Source: Parcubacteria group bacterium (GTDB lineage Bacteria; Patescibacteriota; Minisyncoccia; Portnoybacterales; UBA2143). From it: a DNA stretch of 41,038 bases. The DNA lies in the NCBI GenBank assembly GCA_013203625.1, contig JABMPX010000002.1, positions 1 through 41,038 on the forward strand, given 5' to 3'. Every line of letters begins with the position of its first letter. Positions within the stretch are counted from its first letter, which is position 1. Positions 8,890 through 41,038 of this stretch are shown here, piece after piece. Under the pieces are notes generated by a model, which saw only the letters and a list, made by a program, of their open reading frames with translations, searched no databases and had not been told where the DNA came from. The translations under genes and the position numbers were made by a program.

Positions 8890-10755
8890 TTATTCTATAA
8901 CCTTTCCGTCCTGACGAATGCTTAAATCATCAGGCAGATCAGTATCAATAATTTTATCTGCATTGCTTAATTCCGAACTAACAAAATTATCATAACCAGT
9001 TATTTTAGACTGCCCAATCAATTCCATTGTGCTATCAAGATGAGCTAAGCTGGGAGTTATAGCCACTTGAAAAGCTATTTGCTTAACTGGCAAAAGAACG
9101 CCAGTAGCAGCTGGCAAATCGCCAATCTGCCAAAGCAATTGGCCAGTCTGTAAATTGTATTCTAATTCTATATCAGCTGGGCTAATCTTATTCTTCCATT
9201 GAACATGTGGAGGCAAAAAAGCTTCTACTTTTACATTACTCAAATCATTAGCTGTATTAATTAATCTCCATTTAATTGTATAAGTAGTTGTTTGTCCAAT
9301 TTTCGGCGGAATTGGCCCACTATTAGGAATCAAATCGTCATTATAATATCCCTGCGCTTGAACAATTAAATCACTAGCTACCTTGGTTATTGATTTGCTC
9401 TGGCCAGTAACTTGAATATCCTTTAAGGCATCGGAAGTTTCCGAAGAATCTATTTGAACTGTATTAGTGATAATAAAATTCTTGTCATTATAGTTTTTTA
9501 TAGGCAAAGGATCTTTAACTTCAATTGAAAAATTAACAGAACCTTCTTGATAATGATCCAAAAAAGCTAAATCCGGTGAATTGCCAGCATTCCATGTGAT
9601 TGTTTGACTTACTCCATCAAAAGAGCCATTATTAAGCGTTAAACTAGTCAAATCCAGAGCTTCTCCTTCTATTTTAGCTGTAATTATTACATTTTTAATA
9701 CCAATATCAGTAGTATTCTGATAATCAATTTGGTATCCTAATGTTTCGCCAGTCTTAGCGACATAATCGCTTAATCTATTAATAGTCTGGCTGACAAATA
9801 AAGGGGAAACAGAAATTTTAAAAGCGCTAACTGTTTCAGCATAAAGTGTAAATTCGTCATCCTCAAAAGTTCCTATTTGCGCATTAAATGATTTTAGTTC
9901 TCCTTGTTCTCCTTGAATAATTCCTTTAACAAGAATTTCTCCTTGTTCGTTGGCTATTAATTCCCCGATAGGCCAAATTCTATCTTCTTTTAATGATTCA
10001 GGGTCAGATGATTGCAAAGTAAATCCGTCAGGATATTCAACTTGGACTTGTAAATTATCAAAAGAAGTTTCTGACTTATTTGAGTATTTTATAGAAAAAT
10101 CAAAGGATTGGCCGCTAACTAATTTTTCTGGCAAATCAAGATTAATAGCTAAAGGAACAGAAATTATCTTTGTAGAAAATTCAGCTTGGTTTATAAAGCG
10201 AGAACTAATTTTACCTGGTTGATAATTTAATTCAGCTGATACTTTTTTATCTTCATCTTTTAATCCAATGACTTTTACTGGTAGTTTGATTTCATTTTCC
10301 TGTTTTGGCTCTAAATCTGGCAAATCGTATGTCTCAATTAAATTTTCTGTATTTGAAGGAATTGATTTCTCTGGATAACGAAAAATTAATTTAATGTCTC
10401 TTAAAGATAATCGCGTATTATTTTTGTATTTCACAATATAAATTACTTCATCTCCGCTAACCATTTTCTCCGGCCCTTGAATTTCTAAATCAACATTATC
10501 CTTGTCAAAAGAGGTCATGCCATGCCAAACCATAAAACCTGATACAACTAAAAAGGCAATTCCTAAATAAATCGCGCCAAGACGCAAGTATTTTTTCTGC
10601 TTAGCTGACAGTTTTCTTTCTTTTATTTCTTTCCATTCTCCTGATGAAGCTTTTTCTCTTTCTTGTCCAGGCCGAAACATTTCCGGTGTTTCAAGCCGTT
10701 CTTCAAATTCAGATTCTGGTTTATAAAGTTTTCTTCTTAATTTTTTTAGTTCCAT
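8890..10755 (-). CDS. Membrane-anchored protein with repeated Ig-like/DUF11-like beta domains
   Basis: One N-terminal TM helix (~aa 57-78) followed by repeated G..Y.I.Y.N beta-sandwich-like modules. Confidence 0.7.
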   Translation of the reverse strand: MELKKLRRKLYKPESEFEERLETPEMFRPGQEREKASSGEWKEIKERKLSAKQKKYLRLGAIYLGIAFLVVSGFMVWHGMTSFDKDNVDLEIQGPEKMVSGDEVIYIVKYKNNTRLSLRDIKLIFRYPEKSIPSNTENLIETYDLPDLEPKQENEIKLPVKVIGLKDEDKKVSAELNYQPGKISSRFINQAEFSTKIISVPLAINLDLPEKLVSGQSFDFSIKYSNKSETSFDNLQVQVEYPDGFTLQSSDPESLKEDRIWPIGELIANEQGEILVKGIIQGEQGELKSFNAQIGTFEDDEFTLYAETVSAFKISVSPLFVSQTINRLSDYVAKTGETLGYQIDYQNTTDIGIKNVIITAKIEGEALDLTSLTLNNGSFDGVSQTITWNAGNSPDLAFLDHYQEGSVNFSIEVKDPLPIKNYNDKNFIITNTVQIDSSETSDALKDIQVTGQSKSITKVASDLIVQAQGYYNDDLIPNSGPIPPKIGQTTTYTIKWRLINTANDLSNVKVEAFLPPHVQWKNKISPADIELEYNLQTGQLLWQIGDLPAATGVLLPVKQIAFQVAITPSLAHLDSTMELIGQSKITGYDNFVSSELSNADKIIDTDLPDDLSIRQDGKVIE

Positions 10756-10767
10756 TGATTGTTTCTT

Positions 10768-11304
10768 TTATTTTAACAAATAAAACGCCTCTTGTAAAAA
10801 AGATCTTGAATTTAATTTTTCATTTAAAAGCGCTTCAACAAAATCAAGAAAATTCTTTTGTTTGCCATAACCCAAAAATTCTAATAATCTATTCTCAAAA
10901 TCACTGATAATAACTTTGACATCCTGATTTGGCTGATTGAGTTCCTGGAAACTAGATAAAAACATTTGCCAAATATTTTCATCTTTTTCTGGACCAATAA
11001 TTAATTTATCAATCAATTCAGATAGATAATAGGCAGATGATAAAGAAATTAAATTTTGATGAAGAAAAGAAAATTTTTCCATTGTTTCTGCTCCTGTAAC
11101 AATATCAAATCCCCTGGCCGGAGCAATCATTAAATGCGTATATAAAAAAAGCTCGAGATGACCTTTAAGTTTAGCTTGGTTTTTTCTAATTGATTTGCCT
11201 CTAAGCAAGATTTTGCCGAAATCTTTGGTATAAACAGTTAAAAGCCGGTCAAATTCGCCTATATTCGTTCTTTTAATGATAATGCCTTGGGTTTTATAAA
11301 GCAT
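10768..11304 (-). CDS. recO: DNA repair protein RecO (short form, no Zn finger)
   Basis: YKTQGIIIKR..IGEFDRLLTVYTKDFGK N-terminal OB fold; start reassigned to ATG 11304. Confidence 0.88.
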   Translation of the reverse strand: MLYKTQGIIIKRTNIGEFDRLLTVYTKDFGKILLRGKSIRKNQAKLKGHLELFLYTHLMIAPARGFDIVTGAETMEKFSFLHQNLISLSSAYYLSELIDKLIIGPEKDENIWQMFLSSFQELNQPNQDVKVIISDFENRLLEFLGYGKQKNFLDFVEALLNEKLNSRSFLQEAFYLLK

Positions 11305-11319
11305 ATGAATCAAGTGAAT

Positions 11320-11381
11320 CAAGGACAGTCCTTAAAATGACATCCTTGTGCATAAGGATGTAATTTTAAGGACTGTCCTTG
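11320..11381. repeat. 62-bp nested palindromic element, copy 1
   Basis: CAAGGACAGTCCTTAAAATGACATCCTTGTGCATAAGGATGTAATTTTAAGGACTGTCCTTG; exact reverse complement of 13109-13170. Confidence 0.97.
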
Positions 11382-11386
11382 CAATA

Positions 11387-13099
11387 TCATCCTATTTCTT
11401 TATTGTAGCATGCTTCGCAATAAATAATCTCTTTTCTGTCTGGGGCGTATGTTGTTTGGAAGGTAGTATTGCATCCTTTGTTCATACATTGCCTTTCCCA
11501 TAGTTTCATTGGATTTCTTTGTTTAATCCGTTCTCTATGTCTGCAATCAGGGCAGAGTCGTGGCAAAGAAAAGTTCATCTTTTTATAGAATTTTAGTTCT
11601 GTTGGAATTAGACGGAATACTCCTGAGCCAGCGCAGTCATCAGAAGAACATTGTATTACTTCTTTTAATATAGAGTTATCTACATCTTTTATGCTGTCTG
11701 GAAGGTTTTTTGCTTTAATTGTTGGTTTATATTCGCTTTTAGGTTTGTCATGCCATGTATATCCTTGGTCTATTGCTTGTTGTTTGGTTAAGGGGAAGTA
11801 TTCATTGGCTATTGTTTCATTGTAGGCAAAAGGACTTAATTCAACAGGGAAGAATTCTCCATACTTGTATACTCTGCCATTTTTATCAACATAGGGCATC
11901 TTGTTCATGTGTTCTTTGATTTTAGGAACTAATTCTTCATATTGTTCTTTTGTGTATTGCTTGTTTAGGATGCAGTATTGCTTGTGACGGAGGCCTACGC
12001 ATGCGAAGAGGTTGGAGGAGGAGTGACAGGAAAGACAGTATTCCATATCTCGACAATTTGGCCAACAGTTAAAACAGAAACTTAATTGATTAAGGCCATT
12101 CCCCAAAAGAACGCCTTCATAGATTAGACTAGCTTTTTCTCCCCAACAATAATAATCGTAGCAATCTTGAGTTATGTCCCATATGAGATGGCAATACCTT
12201 AAATTTTCTCCTTTTTTAACTAAATATGAATCTTTAACATTTTTAGAATTATCAATATACTCACCAAACACGTTAACATTCTTACGGCCATGCATGTATT
12301 TAACCGGGAATTTTAAATGAAGTTGTTTGGTTTTATTGTTCAATTCTTGAATGCTTTTATAGGAACCTGTGTTAAACTCTTCAAGTTTTTTGAAATATTC
12401 TTCTTTAGCATACGACTTGTTAAAAATATGATACTTTTTGTGTCTCAAATTTGCACAGCCAAAACAATTAGAACAATTAATGCAATCTTTACAAAAATAA
12501 ATCTCTTGACAGTCCGTACAATGGGAAGAAAAAAATGTTTTATAGCAATTGTTTAGCATAAATCCCTCATAACAAAGCTCTGATCTCCTAAGGTGATGAT
12601 TATCATAACAATTATTGGAACGATCAATGCCATTACCATAAGCACAGTTCTCGGAATGGCCGGCAAAAAACAAAAGATAGCAGTTTTTTAAAAAGGAGGC
12701 TTGCATAGAATAATCACTATTAACTAATCCACTTGACATACGACTAGCCCAAGGCACCTCTCTGCTCAATTTTTTAATCTGTTTTAGGAACGACTTGTTA
12801 AAATCATAATCATGACCATATTTTAAAGGATCCCATTTATCTGACCACCAAATTTCCTGATCATAGATTTTAATCGGCGCTTCTGGAGAAAAAACAGAAA
12901 AGGTTTTCTTCTTGGAAAAATCGCATTTCCTCTTATACAAATTTGTCTCATTCTGAAAAGCAAACCTCCTCTGCATCCTACAATCTGGACAAAAGGTTGG
13001 TTCTGGCACGTCTATCTTCTTGTAAAATTCAAAGTCCTCCGGTTCTATAGTGAACTTGGCTTTGCAGTTTTGGCATATTTTTGTTTTAGATTGAGTCAT
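11387..13099 (-). CDS. Cys-rich zinc-ribbon protein of a type common in Parcubacteria; function unknown
   Basis: Duplicated N- and C-terminal FYKK...CPDCR modules, two internal Cys-periodic modules each ending LRHK.Y.I.NK.Y.KE.Y, and terminal YCEACY; start reassigned to ATG 13099. Confidence 0.8.
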   Translation of the reverse strand: MTQSKTKICQNCKAKFTIEPEDFEFYKKIDVPEPTFCPDCRMQRRFAFQNETNLYKRKCDFSKKKTFSVFSPEAPIKIYDQEIWWSDKWDPLKYGHDYDFNKSFLKQIKKLSREVPWASRMSSGLVNSDYSMQASFLKNCYLLFFAGHSENCAYGNGIDRSNNCYDNHHLRRSELCYEGFMLNNCYKTFFSSHCTDCQEIYFCKDCINCSNCFGCANLRHKKYHIFNKSYAKEEYFKKLEEFNTGSYKSIQELNNKTKQLHLKFPVKYMHGRKNVNVFGEYIDNSKNVKDSYLVKKGENLRYCHLIWDITQDCYDYYCWGEKASLIYEGVLLGNGLNQLSFCFNCWPNCRDMEYCLSCHSSSNLFACVGLRHKQYCILNKQYTKEQYEELVPKIKEHMNKMPYVDKNGRVYKYGEFFPVELSPFAYNETIANEYFPLTKQQAIDQGYTWHDKPKSEYKPTIKAKNLPDSIKDVDNSILKEVIQCSSDDCAGSGVFRLIPTELKFYKKMNFSLPRLCPDCRHRERIKQRNPMKLWERQCMNKGCNTTFQTTYAPDRKEIIYCEACYNKEIG

Positions 13100-13108
13100 G
13101 ATTTGAGT

Positions 13109-13170
13109 CAAGGACAGTCCTTAAAATTACATCCTTATGCACAAGGATGTCATTTTAAGGACTGTCCTTG
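13109..13170. repeat. 62-bp nested palindromic element, copy 2
   Basis: CAAGGACAGTCCTTAAAATTACATCCTTATGCACAAGGATGTCATTTTAAGGACTGTCCTTG. Confidence 0.97.
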
Positions 13171-13179
13171 TGCATATCC

Positions 13180-13209
13180 AGTATACCTTATAAATCGCTT
13201 TGTTTTCAA
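13180..13209 (-). promoter_or_regulatory. sigma70-type promoter reading into repeat copy 2, the Cys-rich gene and possibly recO-glyS
   Basis: TTGAAA-18 bp-TATACT on the minus strand. Confidence 0.6.
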
Positions 13210-13233
13210 GAATAAAAACAATGATTGTCTATC

Positions 13234-13262
13234 TTGACTAAATTTCAATAAAGAAGTAATAT
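13234..13262 (+). promoter_or_regulatory. sigma70-type promoter for the 380-aa orphan
   Basis: TTGACT-17 bp-TAATAT. Confidence 0.6.
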
Positions 13263-13375
13263 CCCAGATATAGTTCATTTACATTTGGTTTGGCAGAAAT
13301 TTAAGGATTTCTTCCAAGGTTCTTTCCTTAAGAGGAAAGAGAAACAAAAACAGCTAAGGCTATGGGAGGTGTATT

Positions 13376-14518
13376 ATGAAAAGGAAAGAAAAAGAAACAT
13401 TTCTGGAAAGTCGTCCTCAACACGATAACTTTGAATATCTGTTGGCTAACCAGTTTCTCACTGAAGCATCAGATGAAGGGAAAATCAAAAAACTCAAAAA
13501 AGTTTTTGGGTTGGCCGTTGAATATCGCAATGATGAGGCAGCTTTAAAATTATTAACCCTTATAGATAAGGCGATTTACGAAAAGGAGAGAAGAATTGCT
13601 GAAGGACCTGGTGGCGACGGCCATCTTGGTAGAGCGTATGGACGGGCAAAAAGACAGTTGTACGATTACCTGATGGAAATGTATTGGCAATTACCGGACA
13701 TGAAACCCGACCGTCACGATTGTCGTGACATAATGTGTCCGACAATGCTCCAGACAAAATTCTGGATTCTGGAAGAGGTTATTCTCAATTGGCAACCTGA
13801 AGAACAAGGAGCCGTCAGAACATTTCAATTTCTGATTGCTGCTTATGAACCTCTGTCAAAAGACTGGCAAACTCCTGTAGAAAACGCCGAATTCAAAATA
13901 AAATCCAAAGGACGATGGGTTTCTCAGGAGGAAAGAGGTGAAATTTTAAAGCTAATCCGGAGACAGAACACCAGATTCAAATCAGGAGAGATTGAAAAAT
14001 GGATAAAACAACCTTGGATCCCTCATGAATTTGAAAAAATTTTAGCTATTGCCCGAACCCGCAATGGTGGACCAAAATTATGGCAAGATGACATTCGTAA
14101 CGCTGAACTACTTAAATTATTTTCTCCAGACGAACGAACTGAAGCAGCTATTAATCTTTTCCAACGAGAATGCAAAATCATTGCTGAAATTGACCAAAAA
14201 GTCCAGAAGCTTATTAACCAAATGACATCTGAAGATTATTCAGGAAGAGAAGAAATCGGTGGTTCTGAATACGTCCTTGGCAAGAGAGGAATAATCTACA
14301 ATACCATTTTCGAGATTATAATCCATATTAAACTAAGGCCTGATTGTCCAGAAGCTCTGGTTCGTGACAATTTTGGCCGAGCCAAACGACATATTAAAAA
14401 ATGGCTGAAAGAAAATCATTTTCGTAAAGTAACTCTTAACATGCGTATAGAGGGAACAGATTTTAAGTTAAATGGAGAATTTTATGGAGATCATCATCAT
14501 TTAGCTAAAAAAGGTTGA
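13376..14518 (+). CDS. Hypothetical protein, 380 aa
   Basis: Long ORF with strong SD GGGAGGTG, its own promoter and terminator; no recognised motif. Confidence 0.8.
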   Translation: MKRKEKETFLESRPQHDNFEYLLANQFLTEASDEGKIKKLKKVFGLAVEYRNDEAALKLLTLIDKAIYEKERRIAEGPGGDGHLGRAYGRAKRQLYDYLMEMYWQLPDMKPDRHDCRDIMCPTMLQTKFWILEEVILNWQPEEQGAVRTFQFLIAAYEPLSKDWQTPVENAEFKIKSKGRWVSQEERGEILKLIRRQNTRFKSGEIEKWIKQPWIPHEFEKILAIARTRNGGPKLWQDDIRNAELLKLFSPDERTEAAINLFQRECKIIAEIDQKVQKLINQMTSEDYSGREEIGGSEYVLGKRGIIYNTIFEIIIHIKLRPDCPEALVRDNFGRAKRHIKKWLKENHFRKVTLNMRIEGTDFKLNGEFYGDHHHLAKKG

Positions 14519-14526
14519 TATTAAAA

Positions 14527-14567
14527 CCCCGTTGGACTGAAACTAGTCTAACGGGGATTTTTTATTT
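14527..14567 (+). terminator. Intrinsic terminator
   Basis: CCCCGTTGGACT-GAAACT-AGTCTAACGGGG followed by ATTTTTTATTT. Confidence 0.8.
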
Positions 14568-14579
14568 CTTAAAACCAAT

Positions 14580-14608
14580 TTGCCAGAAGCATAAAAAAAA
14601 TATATACT
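14580..14608 (+). promoter_or_regulatory. sigma70-type promoter for dnaE-thrS
   Basis: TTGCCA-17 bp-TATACT, with the ATG 11 nt downstream. Confidence 0.65.
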
Positions 14609-14619
14609 GGAAACAACCT

Positions 14620-17600
14620 ATGAAATTTACTCATTTACATGTTCACTCTCATTATTCCCTATTAGACGGTCTAGCTAAAATAGACCAGCTTTTGGACGCT
14701 TGCCAGGAATTAAAAATGCCTTCTATTGCCTTAACTGACCATGGTTCAATGTATGGATTGGTTGAGTTTTATAAAAAAGCTAAAAAAAGAGGAATCAGGC
14801 CTATTATAGGATGTGAAGCATATGTTGCTTTTGAGGATATGCATCAGAAAAGACCTAATATTGATAATAAGCGTTATCATTTAGTTCTTTTAGTTAAAAA
14901 CGAAGAAGGATATCGAAATTTGGTTAAATTAACTACAAAGGCCTATTTAGAAGGCTTTTACTACAAGCCAAGAATTGATAAGGAATTATTAAAAAAACAT
15001 GCCAAGGGCTTAATTGGATTATCTGCTTGCATTGCTGGTGAAATACCTAGAGCTATTATTTCTGGCAAAATAGATCAAGCAGAGAAATTAACCTTGGAAT
15101 ATCAAGAAATTTTTGGCAAGGGCAATTTCTATTTAGAAATCCAGCATCATTCTAATTTACTAGAACAAAAACAAGTTAATGATGCTTTAATTAAAATTGC
15201 TAAAAAACACAAAGTTCCTTTAATCGCAACAAATGATGTTCATTATGTTAAGCCAGAAGACGCAGAAGCTCAAGATGTTCTAATGAGCATTCAAATTGAC
15301 AAGCGTTTATCTGACCAAGACCGCATAACTATGAAATCTAATGATTTTTCTCTTAGGCCAACAGAACAAATGATTAAAGATTTCAAAGATGTGCCTGAAG
15401 CAATTGAGAATACCCAGAAAATTGTTGAAAAATGCAATTTTGAATTTGAATTAGATAAAATTCAATTACCCTCTTTTGAGGTCCCTAATGGGCAAACACC
15501 TGATGAGTATTTAGAAAGTTTATGTAAAAAAGGATTGGAAAAAATAAGATTTGAAGCTTCTTCTAAAGAAGTTTTAGATAGATTGAATTATGAATTAGAT
15601 GTTATTAAAAAAACTGGTTATGCTTCTTACTTTCTTATCGTGCAAGATTTTATCAATTGGGCTAAATCCAAAAATATTGTTTGCGGTCCAGGGAGAGGAA
15701 GCGCAGCCGGATCAATAGTCTCGTATCTTATTGGCGTCACTGCTGTTGATCCGCTTAAGTATAATTTGCTTTTTGAGCGTTTTTTAAACCCAGAACGCAT
15801 CTCTATGCCTGATATTGATCTGGACTTTGCTGATGATCGCCGCGATGAAGTAATTGAATATGTGGCAAAAAAATATGGCCAAGGACACGTTGCTCAAATT
15901 ATCACTTTCGGAACTATGGCTGCTCGAGCTGCTGTCCGTGATGTAGGCCGAGTGCTTGATTATTCATACAGTTTCTGCGACCAAATAGCTAAAGCAATTC
16001 CTCTTGGTTCAACTTTAGAAAAAGCTATTTATGAATCACAAGAACTGCATAGTAGCTACGAATCAGATGATAACACTAAACGGCTAATTGACATGGCTAT
16101 GAAATTAGAAGGCGTAGTTCGCCATGCTTCCACTCACGCTTGCGGAGTTGTTATTACTAAAGAACTACTTGATGAATTAGTTCCCTGCCAATATCCTACC
16201 CAAAACGACGAATCCATTGTTACTCAATATGAAATGCACTCTATTGAAGATTTAGGCCTTTTAAAAATGGACTTTCTTGGTTTAAAAACTTTAACAGTTA
16301 TTCAAAATACTCTTAATCAGATAAAAGAATACAATAAACAAGAAATTGATTTAGCTAATATTCCCTTAGATGATAAAAAAACATTTAGCTTATTCCAACA
16401 AGCAAATAGCACGGGCGTATTCCAATTAGAATCAAATGGAATGAAGAGATACCTCAAACAATTAAAGCCAACTCAATTTGAAGATATTATTGCTATGGTT
16501 GCTTTATACAGGCCTGGCCCAATGGAATTTATTCCAGAATTCATTGCCCGAAAACATGGTCTTAAGCAAATCGAATATCTCCATCCTTTACTTAAACCGA
16601 TTTTAGAAAACACTTACGGTGTAATGGTTTATCAAGAACAGCTTATGCGTATTGCCAGAGATCTAGCTGGCTTTACTCTTTCAGAAGCTGATGTTCTTAG
16701 AAAAGCAGTTGGCAAGAAAATCAAAAAACTTCTGGATGAACAGGAAGAAAGAATGGTTAAAGGAATGATTAATAATGATATTGAATCAAAAATAGCTAAA
16801 AAAATCTGGAAAACTATTGAGCCATTTGCCCAATATGGATTTAATGCCAGCCATGCTACATGTTACGCTTTAATTGGATACCAAACTGCTTATCTTAAGG
16901 CGCACTTTCCAACTGAATTTATGGCCGCTACTATGACTTCTGAGCAAAATGATATTGAAAGAATCGCATTTTTGGTTAATGAATGCCAACAAATGAATAT
17001 TAAAGTTTTACCGCCTGATATTAATGAAAGCAACCAGAATTTCAGCAGAATAGATGAAAAAATAATTCGTTTTGGACTTAAAGCAATAAAAAATGTTGGA
17101 GAAAATATAGTTCAAAGTATTGTTCAAGAAAGAAAAAATAATGGTCCATATCAATCAATTACTGATTTTATTGAAAGAGTTGAATCTAAAGATTTAAATA
17201 AAAAATCGCTGGAAAGCTTAACTAAATGCGGAGCTTTAGATGTTTTTGGCGAAAGAAATCAAATTTTAACCGCTATGGAGCAAATACTTAATCTGGCTAG
17301 AGAAATCCAAAAAGCTAAAGAAAACGGCCAAGTAAGCCTATTTGCCGGACAACCAGATATTGAAGCTTCTTCCTTTAAATTGCCGAAAGTCATTCCAGCT
17401 GATAAAAAAGAGCGGCTTAGCTGGGAAAAAGAACTGCTTGGCCTTTATGTCTCCGAACACCCTTTTAAAAATTACGAAAAACGTTTGGCTAAAATAGCTA
17501 CTTCCTGCCGTAATCTTTCTAAAAATCAAGTTGGTCAACGAGTCAAAATTGGAGGATTCATTAATAAAATTAGAAAAATTAATACGAGAACCGGCCATCC

Positions 17601-17781
17601 AATGCTTTTTGTTGAGATAGAAGATACTACTGGACGAATAGAAGCTTTGGTTTTCCCTAATACGCTTGAACGAACATCTATGTCATGGCAAGAAGAAAAA
17701 ATTGTTTTGGTTGGCGGTCGTCTAAGTGATCGTGATGGCAACTTGAAAATACTCTGCGATAGTGTTAAAGTATTGAAGTAA
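14620..17781 (+). CDS. dnaE: DNA polymerase III alpha subunit
   Basis: FTHLHVHSHYSLLDG PHP domain, GRGSAAGS, PDIDLDF, KMDFLGL; start reassigned to ATG 14620. Confidence 0.98.
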   Translation: MKFTHLHVHSHYSLLDGLAKIDQLLDACQELKMPSIALTDHGSMYGLVEFYKKAKKRGIRPIIGCEAYVAFEDMHQKRPNIDNKRYHLVLLVKNEEGYRNLVKLTTKAYLEGFYYKPRIDKELLKKHAKGLIGLSACIAGEIPRAIISGKIDQAEKLTLEYQEIFGKGNFYLEIQHHSNLLEQKQVNDALIKIAKKHKVPLIATNDVHYVKPEDAEAQDVLMSIQIDKRLSDQDRITMKSNDFSLRPTEQMIKDFKDVPEAIENTQKIVEKCNFEFELDKIQLPSFEVPNGQTPDEYLESLCKKGLEKIRFEASSKEVLDRLNYELDVIKKTGYASYFLIVQDFINWAKSKNIVCGPGRGSAAGSIVSYLIGVTAVDPLKYNLLFERFLNPERISMPDIDLDFADDRRDEVIEYVAKKYGQGHVAQIITFGTMAARAAVRDVGRVLDYSYSFCDQIAKAIPLGSTLEKAIYESQELHSSYESDDNTKRLIDMAMKLEGVVRHASTHACGVVITKELLDELVPCQYPTQNDESIVTQYEMHSIEDLGLLKMDFLGLKTLTVIQNTLNQIKEYNKQEIDLANIPLDDKKTFSLFQQANSTGVFQLESNGMKRYLKQLKPTQFEDIIAMVALYRPGPMEFIPEFIARKHGLKQIEYLHPLLKPILENTYGVMVYQEQLMRIARDLAGFTLSEADVLRKAVGKKIKKLLDEQEERMVKGMINNDIESKIAKKIWKTIEPFAQYGFNASHATCYALIGYQTAYLKAHFPTEFMAATMTSEQNDIERIAFLVNECQQMNIKVLPPDINESNQNFSRIDEKIIRFGLKAIKNVGENIVQSIVQERKNNGPYQSITDFIERVESKDLNKKSLESLTKCGALDVFGERNQILTAMEQILNLAREIQKAKENGQVSLFAGQPDIEASSFKLPKVIPADKKERLSWEKELLGLYVSEHPFKNYEKRLAKIATSCRNLSKNQVGQRVKIGGFINKIRKINTRTGHPMLFVEIEDTTGRIEALVFPNTLERTSMSWQEEKIVLVGGRLSDRDGNLKILCDSVKVLK

Positions 17782-29787: not shown

Positions 29788-30432
29788 TTATTTTAAATAG
29801 GTTTTCTCAATCACTTTAATTGAATCTTGTAAAATTAATAGATATTGATGCGTTAAAATGTCTAAAACATTTAAACTGTCTGCTCTGATCGTCTTTGTTT
29901 TAGGAATATTTTTGACTGATTGGCTAATTTTCAAATCTGTTTTAGGCAAAACAATTAAAACGCTTTTATTTAAATTCTTTTTGAGTTTTGTTTTTAAATC
30001 ATTAATTATTTCAACCATTAATTTAGTTTTTCTTTTTGTTAATTCTATATTGTCTAATAAAATTATCTCTTTATCTTTTAATTTAGAAGACAAAGTCATT
30101 AATAAAGCTTTTTGCTTCATTTTTTTATTAATTTTCTTACTAAAATTCCTATCTTTGGTTGGCCCAAAAGTTACTCCGCCGCCCCGCCAAATTGGAGAAC
30201 GAATAGAACCATGTCTTGCTCTGCCAGTTCCTTTTTGCCTCCATGGCTTGCGGCCTCCGCCGCGTTTTTCACTCCTGTCTTTAGTATGGGCTATGACCTT
30301 TCGCGAATTAGCCATCTGAGCAACAACTGCTTGATGGACCAAATCCTGATTCATCTTCACGCCAAAAATTTCAGCCGGCAATTTGGCTTTTCCTGTTTCC
30401 TCGCCTTTTTGATTGTATATCTTAATAAGCAT
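29788..30432 (-). CDS. rplD: 50S ribosomal protein uL4
   Basis: GGGRKPWRQKGTGRARHGS. Confidence 0.98.
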   Translation of the reverse strand: MLIKIYNQKGEETGKAKLPAEIFGVKMNQDLVHQAVVAQMANSRKVIAHTKDRSEKRGGGRKPWRQKGTGRARHGSIRSPIWRGGGVTFGPTKDRNFSKKINKKMKQKALLMTLSSKLKDKEIILLDNIELTKRKTKLMVEIINDLKTKLKKNLNKSVLIVLPKTDLKISQSVKNIPKTKTIRADSLNVLDILTHQYLLILQDSIKVIEKTYLK

Positions 30433-30435
30433 AAT

Positions 30436-30454
30436 ATTTTAAGGACTGTCCTTG
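30436..30454. repeat. Single 19-bp arm of the 62-bp element, overlapping the rplC stop
   Basis: ATTTTAAGGACTGTCCTTG, identical to the terminal arm of copies 1 and 2. Confidence 0.9.
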
Positions 30455-35813: not shown

Positions 35814-35875
35814 AAAGGACAGTCCTTAAAATTACGTCCTTATTCACAAGGACGTCATTTTAAGGACTGTCCTTT
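35814..35875. repeat. 62-bp nested palindromic element, copy 3, overlapping the rpsL stop
   Basis: AAAGGACAGTCCTTAAAATTACGTCCTTATTCACAAGGACGTCATTTTAAGGACTGTCCTTT; 57/62 identical to copy 2. Confidence 0.95.
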
Positions 35876-40875: not shown

Positions 40876-40972
40876 ATGTTCTTATAATAACACTTTTTTT
40901 ATTATATTCAAGGTTTATTGGTAATGTGTACACACATATTGCACTTTTAAATAAATGGTATCATTAGGGCAT

Positions 40973-41038
40973 ATGAGTAAAATTATGCCCAACAATGAAA
41001 TAGAAGAACGCTATCGCTGGATAGGACCAATAGTTGAT
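40973..41038 (+). CDS. 5' fragment of an ORF, possibly an IS481/integrase-core transposase
   Basis: MSKIMPNNEIEERYRWIGPIVD resembles N-termini I recall from CPR IS481-like proteins; palindromic TGTGTACACA upstream; only 22 codons visible. Confidence 0.35.
   Translation, partial: MSKIMPNNEIEERYRWIGPIVD

Follow-up and report, generated by a model that had tools for sequence, protein, structure and literature searches.

A gene for a cysteine-rich (Cys-rich) protein is bracketed, in a contig of a Parcubacteria group bacterium, by two exact inverted repeats of 62 nt, and the question raised by this locus is whether these repeats delimit a cassette dedicated to inversion or transposition, as put forward in an earlier prediction made from the sequence alone (hereafter the original prediction). 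The stretch analysed, which we call the window, is the whole contig of 41,038 nt (C18 in the assembly of the genome under study, G000; 470 kb, 22 contigs, 33% G+C, 88.9% completeness). It was compared with a set of 40 related genomes (the relatives, among which G001 and G002 are congeners) and, for the synteny of recO, with a sample of 40 metagenome loci in which recO is 61–88% identical (37 informative, 3 too short). The repeat pair is real and exact, and it is explained by a family of REPIN-like palindromes, together with multi-copy genes with recombining ends. REPIN-like here means that two inverted halves of the repetitive extragenic palindromic (REP) type would fold into one long hairpin. 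That the arms belong to this dispersed family, and do not delimit a dedicated cassette of the invertible or transposable kind, has in our estimate a probability of roughly three in four (0.77).

The left arm (positions 11320–11381) lies between the stop codon of the Cys-rich gene and the ATG of recO, while the right arm (13109–13170) is a second full copy upstream of the ATG of the Cys-rich gene. The two arms are complementary at 62/62 positions and differ, when aligned as direct repeats, at 4/62 positions, in agreement with the original prediction (58/62 as direct repeats). The distances that it gave are also correct: the gene (11387–13099, minus strand, 570 aa) ends, stop included, at 11387, 5 nt from the left arm, and begins with the ATG at 13099, 9 nt from the right arm. 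Each arm on its own is a 31+31 palindrome, built from the 13-mer AAGGACAGTCCTT, AAAAT, an inner hairpin, ATTTT and the 13-mer AAGGACTGTCCTT, and on either strand its hairpin folds with an energy near −43 kcal/mol (z near −10). The 31-nt half-arm has 5 matches in the window vs. 0 in 100 shuffles. The direct-repeat alignment of the arms continues for another 5 nt towards the gene start, to 67 nt. Among the full copies compared in G000, 7/9 have a mismatch at position 20/43 (G.A, or T.C on the complement), and because this mismatch is conserved, the 62-nt element has an orientation. The element is thus an imperfect palindrome with a conserved 1×1 mismatch, hence with two orientations, and the arms are exact reverse complements because they carry the same allele of this imperfect palindrome in opposite orientation.

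The same palindrome occurs well beyond the Cys-rich gene. BLAST recovers 10 full-length copies in G000 (on C3, C5, C7, C11, C14 twice, C18 three times and C19), and weaker variants on C21 and C4 bring the family to 9 contigs. In the window itself, a third full copy (35814–35875) occupies the rpsL|rpsG spacer and includes the rpsL stop codon, and a half copy corresponding to the right end of the element (30425–30454) lies between rplC and rplD. All G000 copies are intergenic, mostly between co-directional genes, a few nt past a stop codon and typically 9–15 nt ahead of an ATG. Their orientation relative to the flanking genes is of both kinds (4 against 3). Most palindrome copies adjoin ordinary genes, and distances to start codons vary from 5 to >100 nt. 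Moreover, the 13-nt core AAGGACNGTCCTT is found solitary, as an exact match, at 8 places in G000, 3 of which are 15-nt short forms CAAGGACTGTCCTTG. Because the same palindrome is dispersed between genes, including within ribosomal-protein operons, the arms are not cassette-specific ends, contrary to what had been proposed; repeats that the str and S10 operons tolerate within them are neither cassette ends nor strong terminators or promoters. At the rpsL copy, it can also be seen that the stop codon (35860–35862) falls within the palindrome, so that S12 is C-terminally extended and takes its final residues from the repeat.

Searching the relatives with the 62-mer revealed copies in 6/40 genomes, all from the same taxonomic family (about 23 loci in G002, 20 in G006 and 12 in G014); this is an undercount, as the search missed the orthologous rpsL|rpsG copy of G001. 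In an alignment of 56 copies from 5 genomes, hairpin pairing is kept in 92.9% of the cells vs. 88.6% after shuffling (0/500 shuffles reach the observed value), and it falls to 32–51% when the partners are slid. In this alignment, compensatory change is such that 13/29 pairs are altered on both sides, with the outermost pair co-varying as C-G, T-A or A-T. In G006, the terminal 13-mers have lost their own palindromy and yet pair with one another, which makes the long hairpin the conserved feature. The stems of the 19 G006 copies (L056–L074) are near-identical, their variation being almost only loop substitutions and 1-nt indels in a 4–5-nt loop, which suggests either a recent copying burst or a mutational hot spot at the centre of the palindrome. 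The G002 copies (L036–L055, L075), for their part, represent one asymmetric element in two orientations, in which the strand with the G.T wobble is opposite to the gene strand in 13/13 copies with a flanking frame ≥100 aa. Such a bias suggests a strand-specific process on single-stranded DNA or selection, and speaks against a simple mRNA-hairpin function. The copy between rpsL and rpsG is orthologous in 3/3 genomes of the genus (G000, G001 and G002) and absent in G010. Since each of these orthologues is closer to the family of its own genome than to its orthologue, copies appear to be homogenised within genomes. Finally, the flanks of the 56 copies show no consistent direct target duplication, and a MITE (miniature inverted-repeat transposable element) with terminal inverted repeats and target-site duplication was rejected: there is no duplication signature and the outermost bases co-vary as a pair.

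In 25/40 relatives, both congeners included, PF01797 (Y1_Tnp) is found above cut-off, in single open reading frames (ORFs) of about 195–230 aa with HUH (NHIHLL or NHFHLL) and YIH(L/F)NP motifs. The protein of G001 is recognised by NCBIfam NF047646 (“REP-associated tyrosine transposase”, RAYT) with 83.6 bits for a cut-off of 80, and the G006 protein reaches 79.4 bits against the same cut-off. Species-specific palindromes lie on one or both sides of the Y1 gene in 9/9 loci inspected. Those flanking the RAYT genes of G001, G002, G004, G006 and G014 have the same build as the G000 element (13-mer, AAAAY, arm ending in CCTT), the RAYT flanks of G005 hold AGGACTGTCCT..AATTACAGTCCTTG, which is a core of the G000 type, and a second, different Y1 gene in G006 has its own distinct flanking palindrome. 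The variant that flanks the RAYT gene of G002 is dispersed in G001, where some 15 loci have it and the two sides of the RAYT gene of that genome are among them; G002 has about 6 such loci and G000 one. A REPIN-like family with RAYT genes is present in Patescibacteria genomes of 0.5–0.7 Mb. Streamlined genomes of this kind are usually thought to be repeat-poor. Among the papers listed by our full-text literature search, none joined RAYT or REPIN with Patescibacteria or the Candidate Phyla Radiation (CPR), save two versions of a primer-evaluation study with single occurrences.

The system to which these observations compare best is REPIN/RAYT of Pseudomonas fluorescens SBW25, for which the relevant passages of PMC3337134 describe inverted REP doublets that form hairpins, a short single-copy RAYT gene flanked by REPINs, one REPIN family per RAYT, and singlets as remnants, REPIN excision leaving a long palindromic singlet. 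The G000 element is similarly made of two inverted halves in a near-perfect hairpin, and its copies are dispersed, intergenic and in both orientations, with a spacer or loop that varies while pairing is kept, and with palindromic singlets; the 15-nt short form would correspond to the long palindromic singlets that remain once a REPIN is excised. In the relatives, the likeness extends to a short single-copy Y1/HUH gene flanked by cognate palindromes, with a distinct family for each RAYT. In contrast, the G000 element measures 62 nt vs. 89 nt for the SBW25 example as given in those passages (PMC3337134). It further differs by its low copy number (about 10–20), its Patescibacteria host of 0.5–0.7 Mb, in the G000 assembly of which no RAYT was found, its AT-rich cores with AAGG/CCTT words, and its enrichment at the borders of one paralogue family. 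A head of the GTAG type is a feature of REPs.

That paralogue family is the one to which the bracketed gene belongs. G000 contains at least 8 such paralogues, the Cys-rich gene among them (6 starts and 8 ends of genes were counted), and their family, from Patescibacteria, is very large and uncharacterised. Pfam and NCBIfam searches of its product returned no family, whereas at least 7946 of the 8000 candidates scored are homologues, those with a name being all “hypothetical” and mostly from Patescibacteria, the label also carried by the nearest ones. Several homologues often sit on one contig. The AlphaFold2 model of the protein (predicted local distance difference test, pLDDT, 75.6; predicted template modelling score, pTM, 0.77) is confident at both Cys-containing termini and weak in the Cys-repeat middle (only 52–66), and Foldseek found no match to this model in the PDB at E ≤ 0.001 (best E = 5.2). 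The start at ATG 13099, and not the TTG at 13111 of the ORF listing, matches the conserved N-terminus of the paralogues (MTQSKTK).

Paralogues share their 5′ and 3′ ends (85–98% identical) more than their cores: DNA identity is 85–96% over the first ~130 nt and 40–70% in the cores, while the last 88–120 nt of some pairs are 96–100% identical. The 3′ end of the bracketed gene (the cap, 88 nt, 11383–11470, minus strand) is thus 100% identical to C20:1–88, and the right end of C11 has a similar Cys 3′ end, with 3 mismatches in 111 nt. At the sequence level, these near-identical ends are consistent with exchange between copies, which agrees with the suggestion of the original prediction that the gene might be exchanged with paralogues. 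Tandem copies on C11 and C19 share a junction unit composed of the 3′ end, the short palindrome and ACTCAAAT(C/T)ATG, and the long palindrome is found 9–13 nt upstream of C11:1658 and C5:5366, with a remnant of a Cys 3′ end ahead of it in the former case. In other paralogues, the repeat is found at a single border or as the short form. Paralogous Cys-rich genes are therefore repeat-flanked, a check that had been proposed, and they are so because the palindrome is part of the shared junction of the family. The closest orthologue of the bracketed gene, in G001 (73% identical), adjoins a gene for a VirD4/TrwB-like ATPase, and two neighbours of G000 paralogues (C5:3582–5288 and C11:1763–3199) also encode such ATPases. 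A zf_Tbcl_2 zinc finger ends two of these ATPases (C5:3582–5288 and the G001 gene L014:1–1419).

In the window, recO (10768–11304, minus strand; 178 aa from the ATG at 11304, with RecO_N and RecO_C domains) follows the Cys-rich gene, whereas recO begins 0–12 nt after ileS in G001 (recO 88% identical), G010 and G014. Among the informative metagenome loci, ileS is upstream of recO in 35/37, ending ≤15 nt before it in 23/37 and lying 50–1200 nt upstream in 12/37, with inserted palindromes or a small ORF; another divergent gene is found upstream in 1/37. Because relatives have ileS directly upstream of recO, the Cys-rich gene is not ancestral at its present position, so that the proposal of an entry next to recO is upheld in this respect. 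The other half of that proposal, an entry between recO and its promoter, fails: since recO directly follows ileS, it is normally without a promoter of its own, and the promoter outside the repeats is not a displaced recO promoter, its side of the locus belonging to the neighbourhood of dnaE. In G001 and G002, dnaE has, divergently upstream, a small gene and a ligA homologue, the latter homologous to C20:694–1725 of G000 (LigA by Pfam); in G000, the order ahead of this gene is Cys 3′ end, short palindrome, NYN gene. No ileS was found in the whole G000 assembly, where the search gave only paralogous synthetases (27–29% identical).

The promoter itself is a promoter-like site (TTGAAA-18-TATACT; 13209–13180, minus strand) outside the right arm, recognised by consensus match only (10/12), from which a transcript would begin just before the hairpin of the right arm. 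It is indeed the best in the region, but its standing as the sole clear promoter is weakened by the presence there of 16 promoter-like sites vs. 10.3 ± 3.8 by chance. The direct repeat GCATAT, said to flank the unit, does occur at 11301–11306 and 13172–13177, but a third copy lies at 13073–13078, and the window holds 19 copies vs. 25 ± 5.6 expected. The spacing between copy and arm is 13 nt at one end and 1 nt at the other, and the left copy is the native start context of recO (ATATGC also precedes recO in G001). A target-site duplication was thus rejected on account of the chance-level count, the unequal distances and the native recO context. Overlapping the outer edge of the left arm, in the recO leader, a 9-nt tandem duplication (TGAATCAAG/TGAATCAAG, 11306–11323) can be read from the sequence; leaders of Cys genes hold a single, related TGAGTCAAG.

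The spacer between ileS and recO is also occupied elsewhere. It holds a palindrome in G000 and G002 and is empty in G001, G010 and G014; in G002, it consists of ~240 nt of palindromic repeats, including one copy of the 62-nt family. In the metagenome sample, it is a recurrent landing place: 12/37 loci (L148, L150, L151, L157–L159, L162–L167) have insertions there, either a small ORF or palindromic repeats of several unrelated families. In L164, the insertion includes a REP that shares the AAGGACTGTCC/GGACAGTCCTTG core. At L137 (1–417), from a more distant relative (recO 67% identical), a gene of the Cys-rich family ends 9 nt before the ATG of recO, with no palindrome; this may be an independent, second case of such a gene reaching the ileS|recO junction. 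A relative with the gene upstream of recO and without repeats is one half of what the original prediction had named as evidence against itself. The L137 contig breaks inside its Cys gene.

We propose that the palindrome family would spread and decay through a RAYT (Y1/HUH) activity, which would leave the 15-nt palindromic singlets in G000. In this genome, the junction between paralogues (near-identical 3′ end, long or short palindrome, conserved leader and ATG) is a conserved unit. A gene copy taken from an array of this kind therefore carries a palindrome on both sides. Homogenisation between copies, suggested by the concerted evolution of the rpsL|rpsG copy, would complete the picture. The present order (recO, palindrome, Cys-rich gene, palindrome, promoter, orphan ORF, dnaE) joins two regions, ileS-recO and ligA-dnaE, which lie apart in relatives, either by a lineage-specific rearrangement through the repeated ends and palindromes, or by a chimeric assembly join through the same sequences. 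Neither of these makes the arms a switch.

Several observations weigh against this REPIN-like interpretation. PF01797 was not found in the G000 assembly, itself 88.9% complete, and the RAYT-flanking palindromes of G001 and G002 are a sister variant (with a AAGGCCGTGCCTT core), not the G000 variant. Because the whole neighbourhood of the G001 RAYT has no counterpart in the G000 assembly, the missing RAYT is read as an assembly gap, that is, neither as a demonstrated loss nor as a demonstrated link. The copy number is low for classical REP/REPIN families. Moreover, palindromes are clearly enriched at the borders of Cys genes (7/~11 junction sites in G000, both borders of the single Cys gene of G002, and the tandem junction in G006), which a plain model of randomly dispersed repeats does not explain. 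Finally, two copies 1.7 kb apart are 62/62 identical, while other copies differ at 1–9 positions, and this identity needs an extra event, be it conversion, local copying or co-transfer. Homogenisation within the genome would be its simplest source. Two other sources were considered and rejected. A reciprocal crossover between two perfect palindrome variants would yield the exact pair of arms observed, but the perfect T/A variant that it requires is found in 0/9 full copies, against 7/9 with the 20/43 mismatch. As for an inversion of the whole cassette, inverting direct copies gives, on paper, either direct copies or two different perfect palindromes.

At face value, an exact pair of 62-bp inverted repeats around a gene whose inner promoter-like sites score below the outside one could suggest an ON/OFF switch, in which recombination between the arms would flip the 1.7-kb segment and uncouple the Cys-rich gene from the outside promoter. 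The present state is even compatible with it, as homologous recombination between perfect inverted repeats leaves the arms unchanged. Yet the arms are generic and dispersed, also between rpsL and rpsG, other paralogues have the repeat on a single side or in short form, and no contig of the assembly has a junction in the alternative orientation. Furthermore, no invertase or serine recombinase was found in G000 (PF00239: 0 matches), whose only tyrosine recombinase by PF00589, on another contig (C2), is Xer-like (234 bits for XerD; 65 for the invertase model, with a cut-off of 221). To this adds that 62 bp would be short for efficient RecA-dependent inversion. We thus consider the switch very unlikely, and the bracketed gene does not hold as a candidate for phase variation. 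Known invertible switches (Hin/Gin, fim and the invertible promoters of Bacteroides) use short, specific inverted repeats only at the switch, along with a dedicated recombinase nearby. They share with our locus inverted repeats bracketing a segment whose orientation to a promoter would decide expression, but differ from it in that the G000 repeats are generic and dispersed, with no such recombinase found. A function in RNA is another reading of the hairpins, which would be kept as 5′ stabilisers, as sites of intercistronic processing or RNase III cleavage, or as attenuators. It draws on hairpins that are long and stable, on their location between the cistrons of transcripts, within a few nt of stop and start codons, on pairing kept by compensatory changes, and on a promoter-like site that would put the right arm at the extreme 5′ end of the mRNA. 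Nevertheless, there are 0 terminator-like sites and no T-run after the hairpins in the region 10600–13500 (GATTCA or GACTCA follows the arms), and a Rfam scan of the whole window gave 0 matches at gathering score. Moreover, the 13/13 bias in G002 means that the mRNA would carry the version with the C.A mismatch, both orientations exist in G000, presence or absence at orthologous spacers varies among relatives, and distances to start codons are, as said, variable. Such boundary signals are therefore improbable in our view; an intrinsic terminator, in particular, was rejected (no GC-rich hairpin with a T-run in the same region).

As a composite mobile cassette, palindrome, gene and palindrome would move as a whole, either by a RAYT acting on the outer hairpins as on IS200/IS605 ends or as a circle recombining at resident palindromes, and this would seed Cys-rich genes at housekeeping junctions. 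The non-ancestral position at recO fits this reading, as do the palindromes marking Cys-gene borders in G000, G002 and G006, the remnant upstream of C11:1658, the second lineage with a Cys-rich gene right before recO (L137), and the ileS|recO palindrome of G002 or same-core REP of L164 as possible entry points. Against it stand the lack of a RAYT in the assembly, the L137 gene devoid of palindrome, an upstream side that is not ileS but another neighbourhood (more than a simple insertion), the majority of copies adjoining ordinary genes and the lack of target duplication, which together make it unlikely. We likewise regard as unlikely a related possibility, in which REPIN-like palindromes would be the joints of a system of Cys-rich cassettes, copies being excised, re-inserted or swapped at resident palindromes. 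Its route, equally conjectural, would be RAYT-type single-strand cleavage or hairpin recombination, with entry points including ileS|recO (in two lineages). If it were true, strains would differ in their sets and positions of Cys-rich genes. More plausible than either, though still less likely than not, is that the locus is an assembly join, with the recO-side palindrome and Cys 3′ end and the dnaE-side palindrome and gene body stemming from two copies merged by the assembler. Indeed, C20:1–88 is identical to the window (11470–11383) up to the base before the palindrome, where the two diverge, C20 continuing with a short palindrome, the NYN gene and ligA, so that a path made of C20 and window 11383–17781 would restore the ligA-dnaE synteny of G001 and G002. 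In addition, ileS, the usual neighbour of recO, is absent from the assembly, and C5, C11, C19 and C20 break inside Cys paralogues (five contig ends in all). On the other hand, the assembler did extend the contig across this point, C20 would be explained equally well by a real third paralogue sharing that end (the right end of C11 being similar), and L137 shows that a Cys gene beside recO exists in nature. Even if true, an assembly join would alter linkage only, and not the nature of the repeats.

Three other known systems invite comparison. Tandem paralogue arrays under interlocus gene conversion resemble the Cys-rich family by their diverged cores (40–70%), near-identical ends and shared flanks, as well as by contigs breaking inside copies and VirD4/TrwB-like ATPase genes adjoining the arrays, but here the shared flank is a REPIN-like palindrome (long or short), and one copy stands alone between housekeeping genes. 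Integron cassettes are promoterless genes with attC sites, i.e., imperfect hairpin palindromes of ~60 nt or more with conserved mismatches, and they are read from an outside promoter. Our locus has in common with them a promoterless gene, palindromes of ~60 nt with a conserved mismatch and an outside promoter. In contrast, its best tyrosine recombinase is Xer-like (106 and 63 bits for integron-integrase models with cut-offs of 265 and 435), its palindromes are dispersed between housekeeping genes instead of forming one array, and the element ends with CAAGGAC/GTCCTTG, not with the GTTRRRY core. An integron cassette with attC was accordingly rejected, the integrase models being below cut-off and the repeats not in one array. 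The Correia elements of Neisseria and the ERIC/RPE elements, lastly, are small non-coding palindromic repeats in transcribed spacers, which sometimes supply stops or coding extensions. The rpsL stop inside a G000 copy is reminiscent of them, while the G000 element differs from MITE-like elements in having no signature of terminal inverted repeat and target duplication.

Regardless of the reading, palindromes and near-identical gene ends are sites of contig breaks and synteny changes, which bears on the trust to be placed in the gene order of metagenome-assembled genomes, and the enrichment of palindromes at the borders of the Cys family may help explain the reshuffling of its arrays. Beside the bracketed gene, a 380-aa ORF (13376–14518, plus strand) overlaps the start of dnaE by 4 nt and represents an orphan at the rearranged junction, with no homologue in 5 relatives and no Pfam family. 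A second, related palindrome family (ends AGAGGC..GTCCTT / AAGGAC..GCCTCT) is present in G000 at C4:36008–36190 and C21:14403–14505, where a cluster of three units ~42 nt apart is followed by a full hairpin; it has a remnant downstream of the Cys gene at C11:3280, and copies also in G001 and G015. Finally, a repeat of 131–163 nt (91–98% identity) is common to four contig ends (window 40880–41038, C9, C15 and C19), and the left ends of C3 and C18 share an exact overlap of 65 nt, which is, like this end repeat, an assembly break point.

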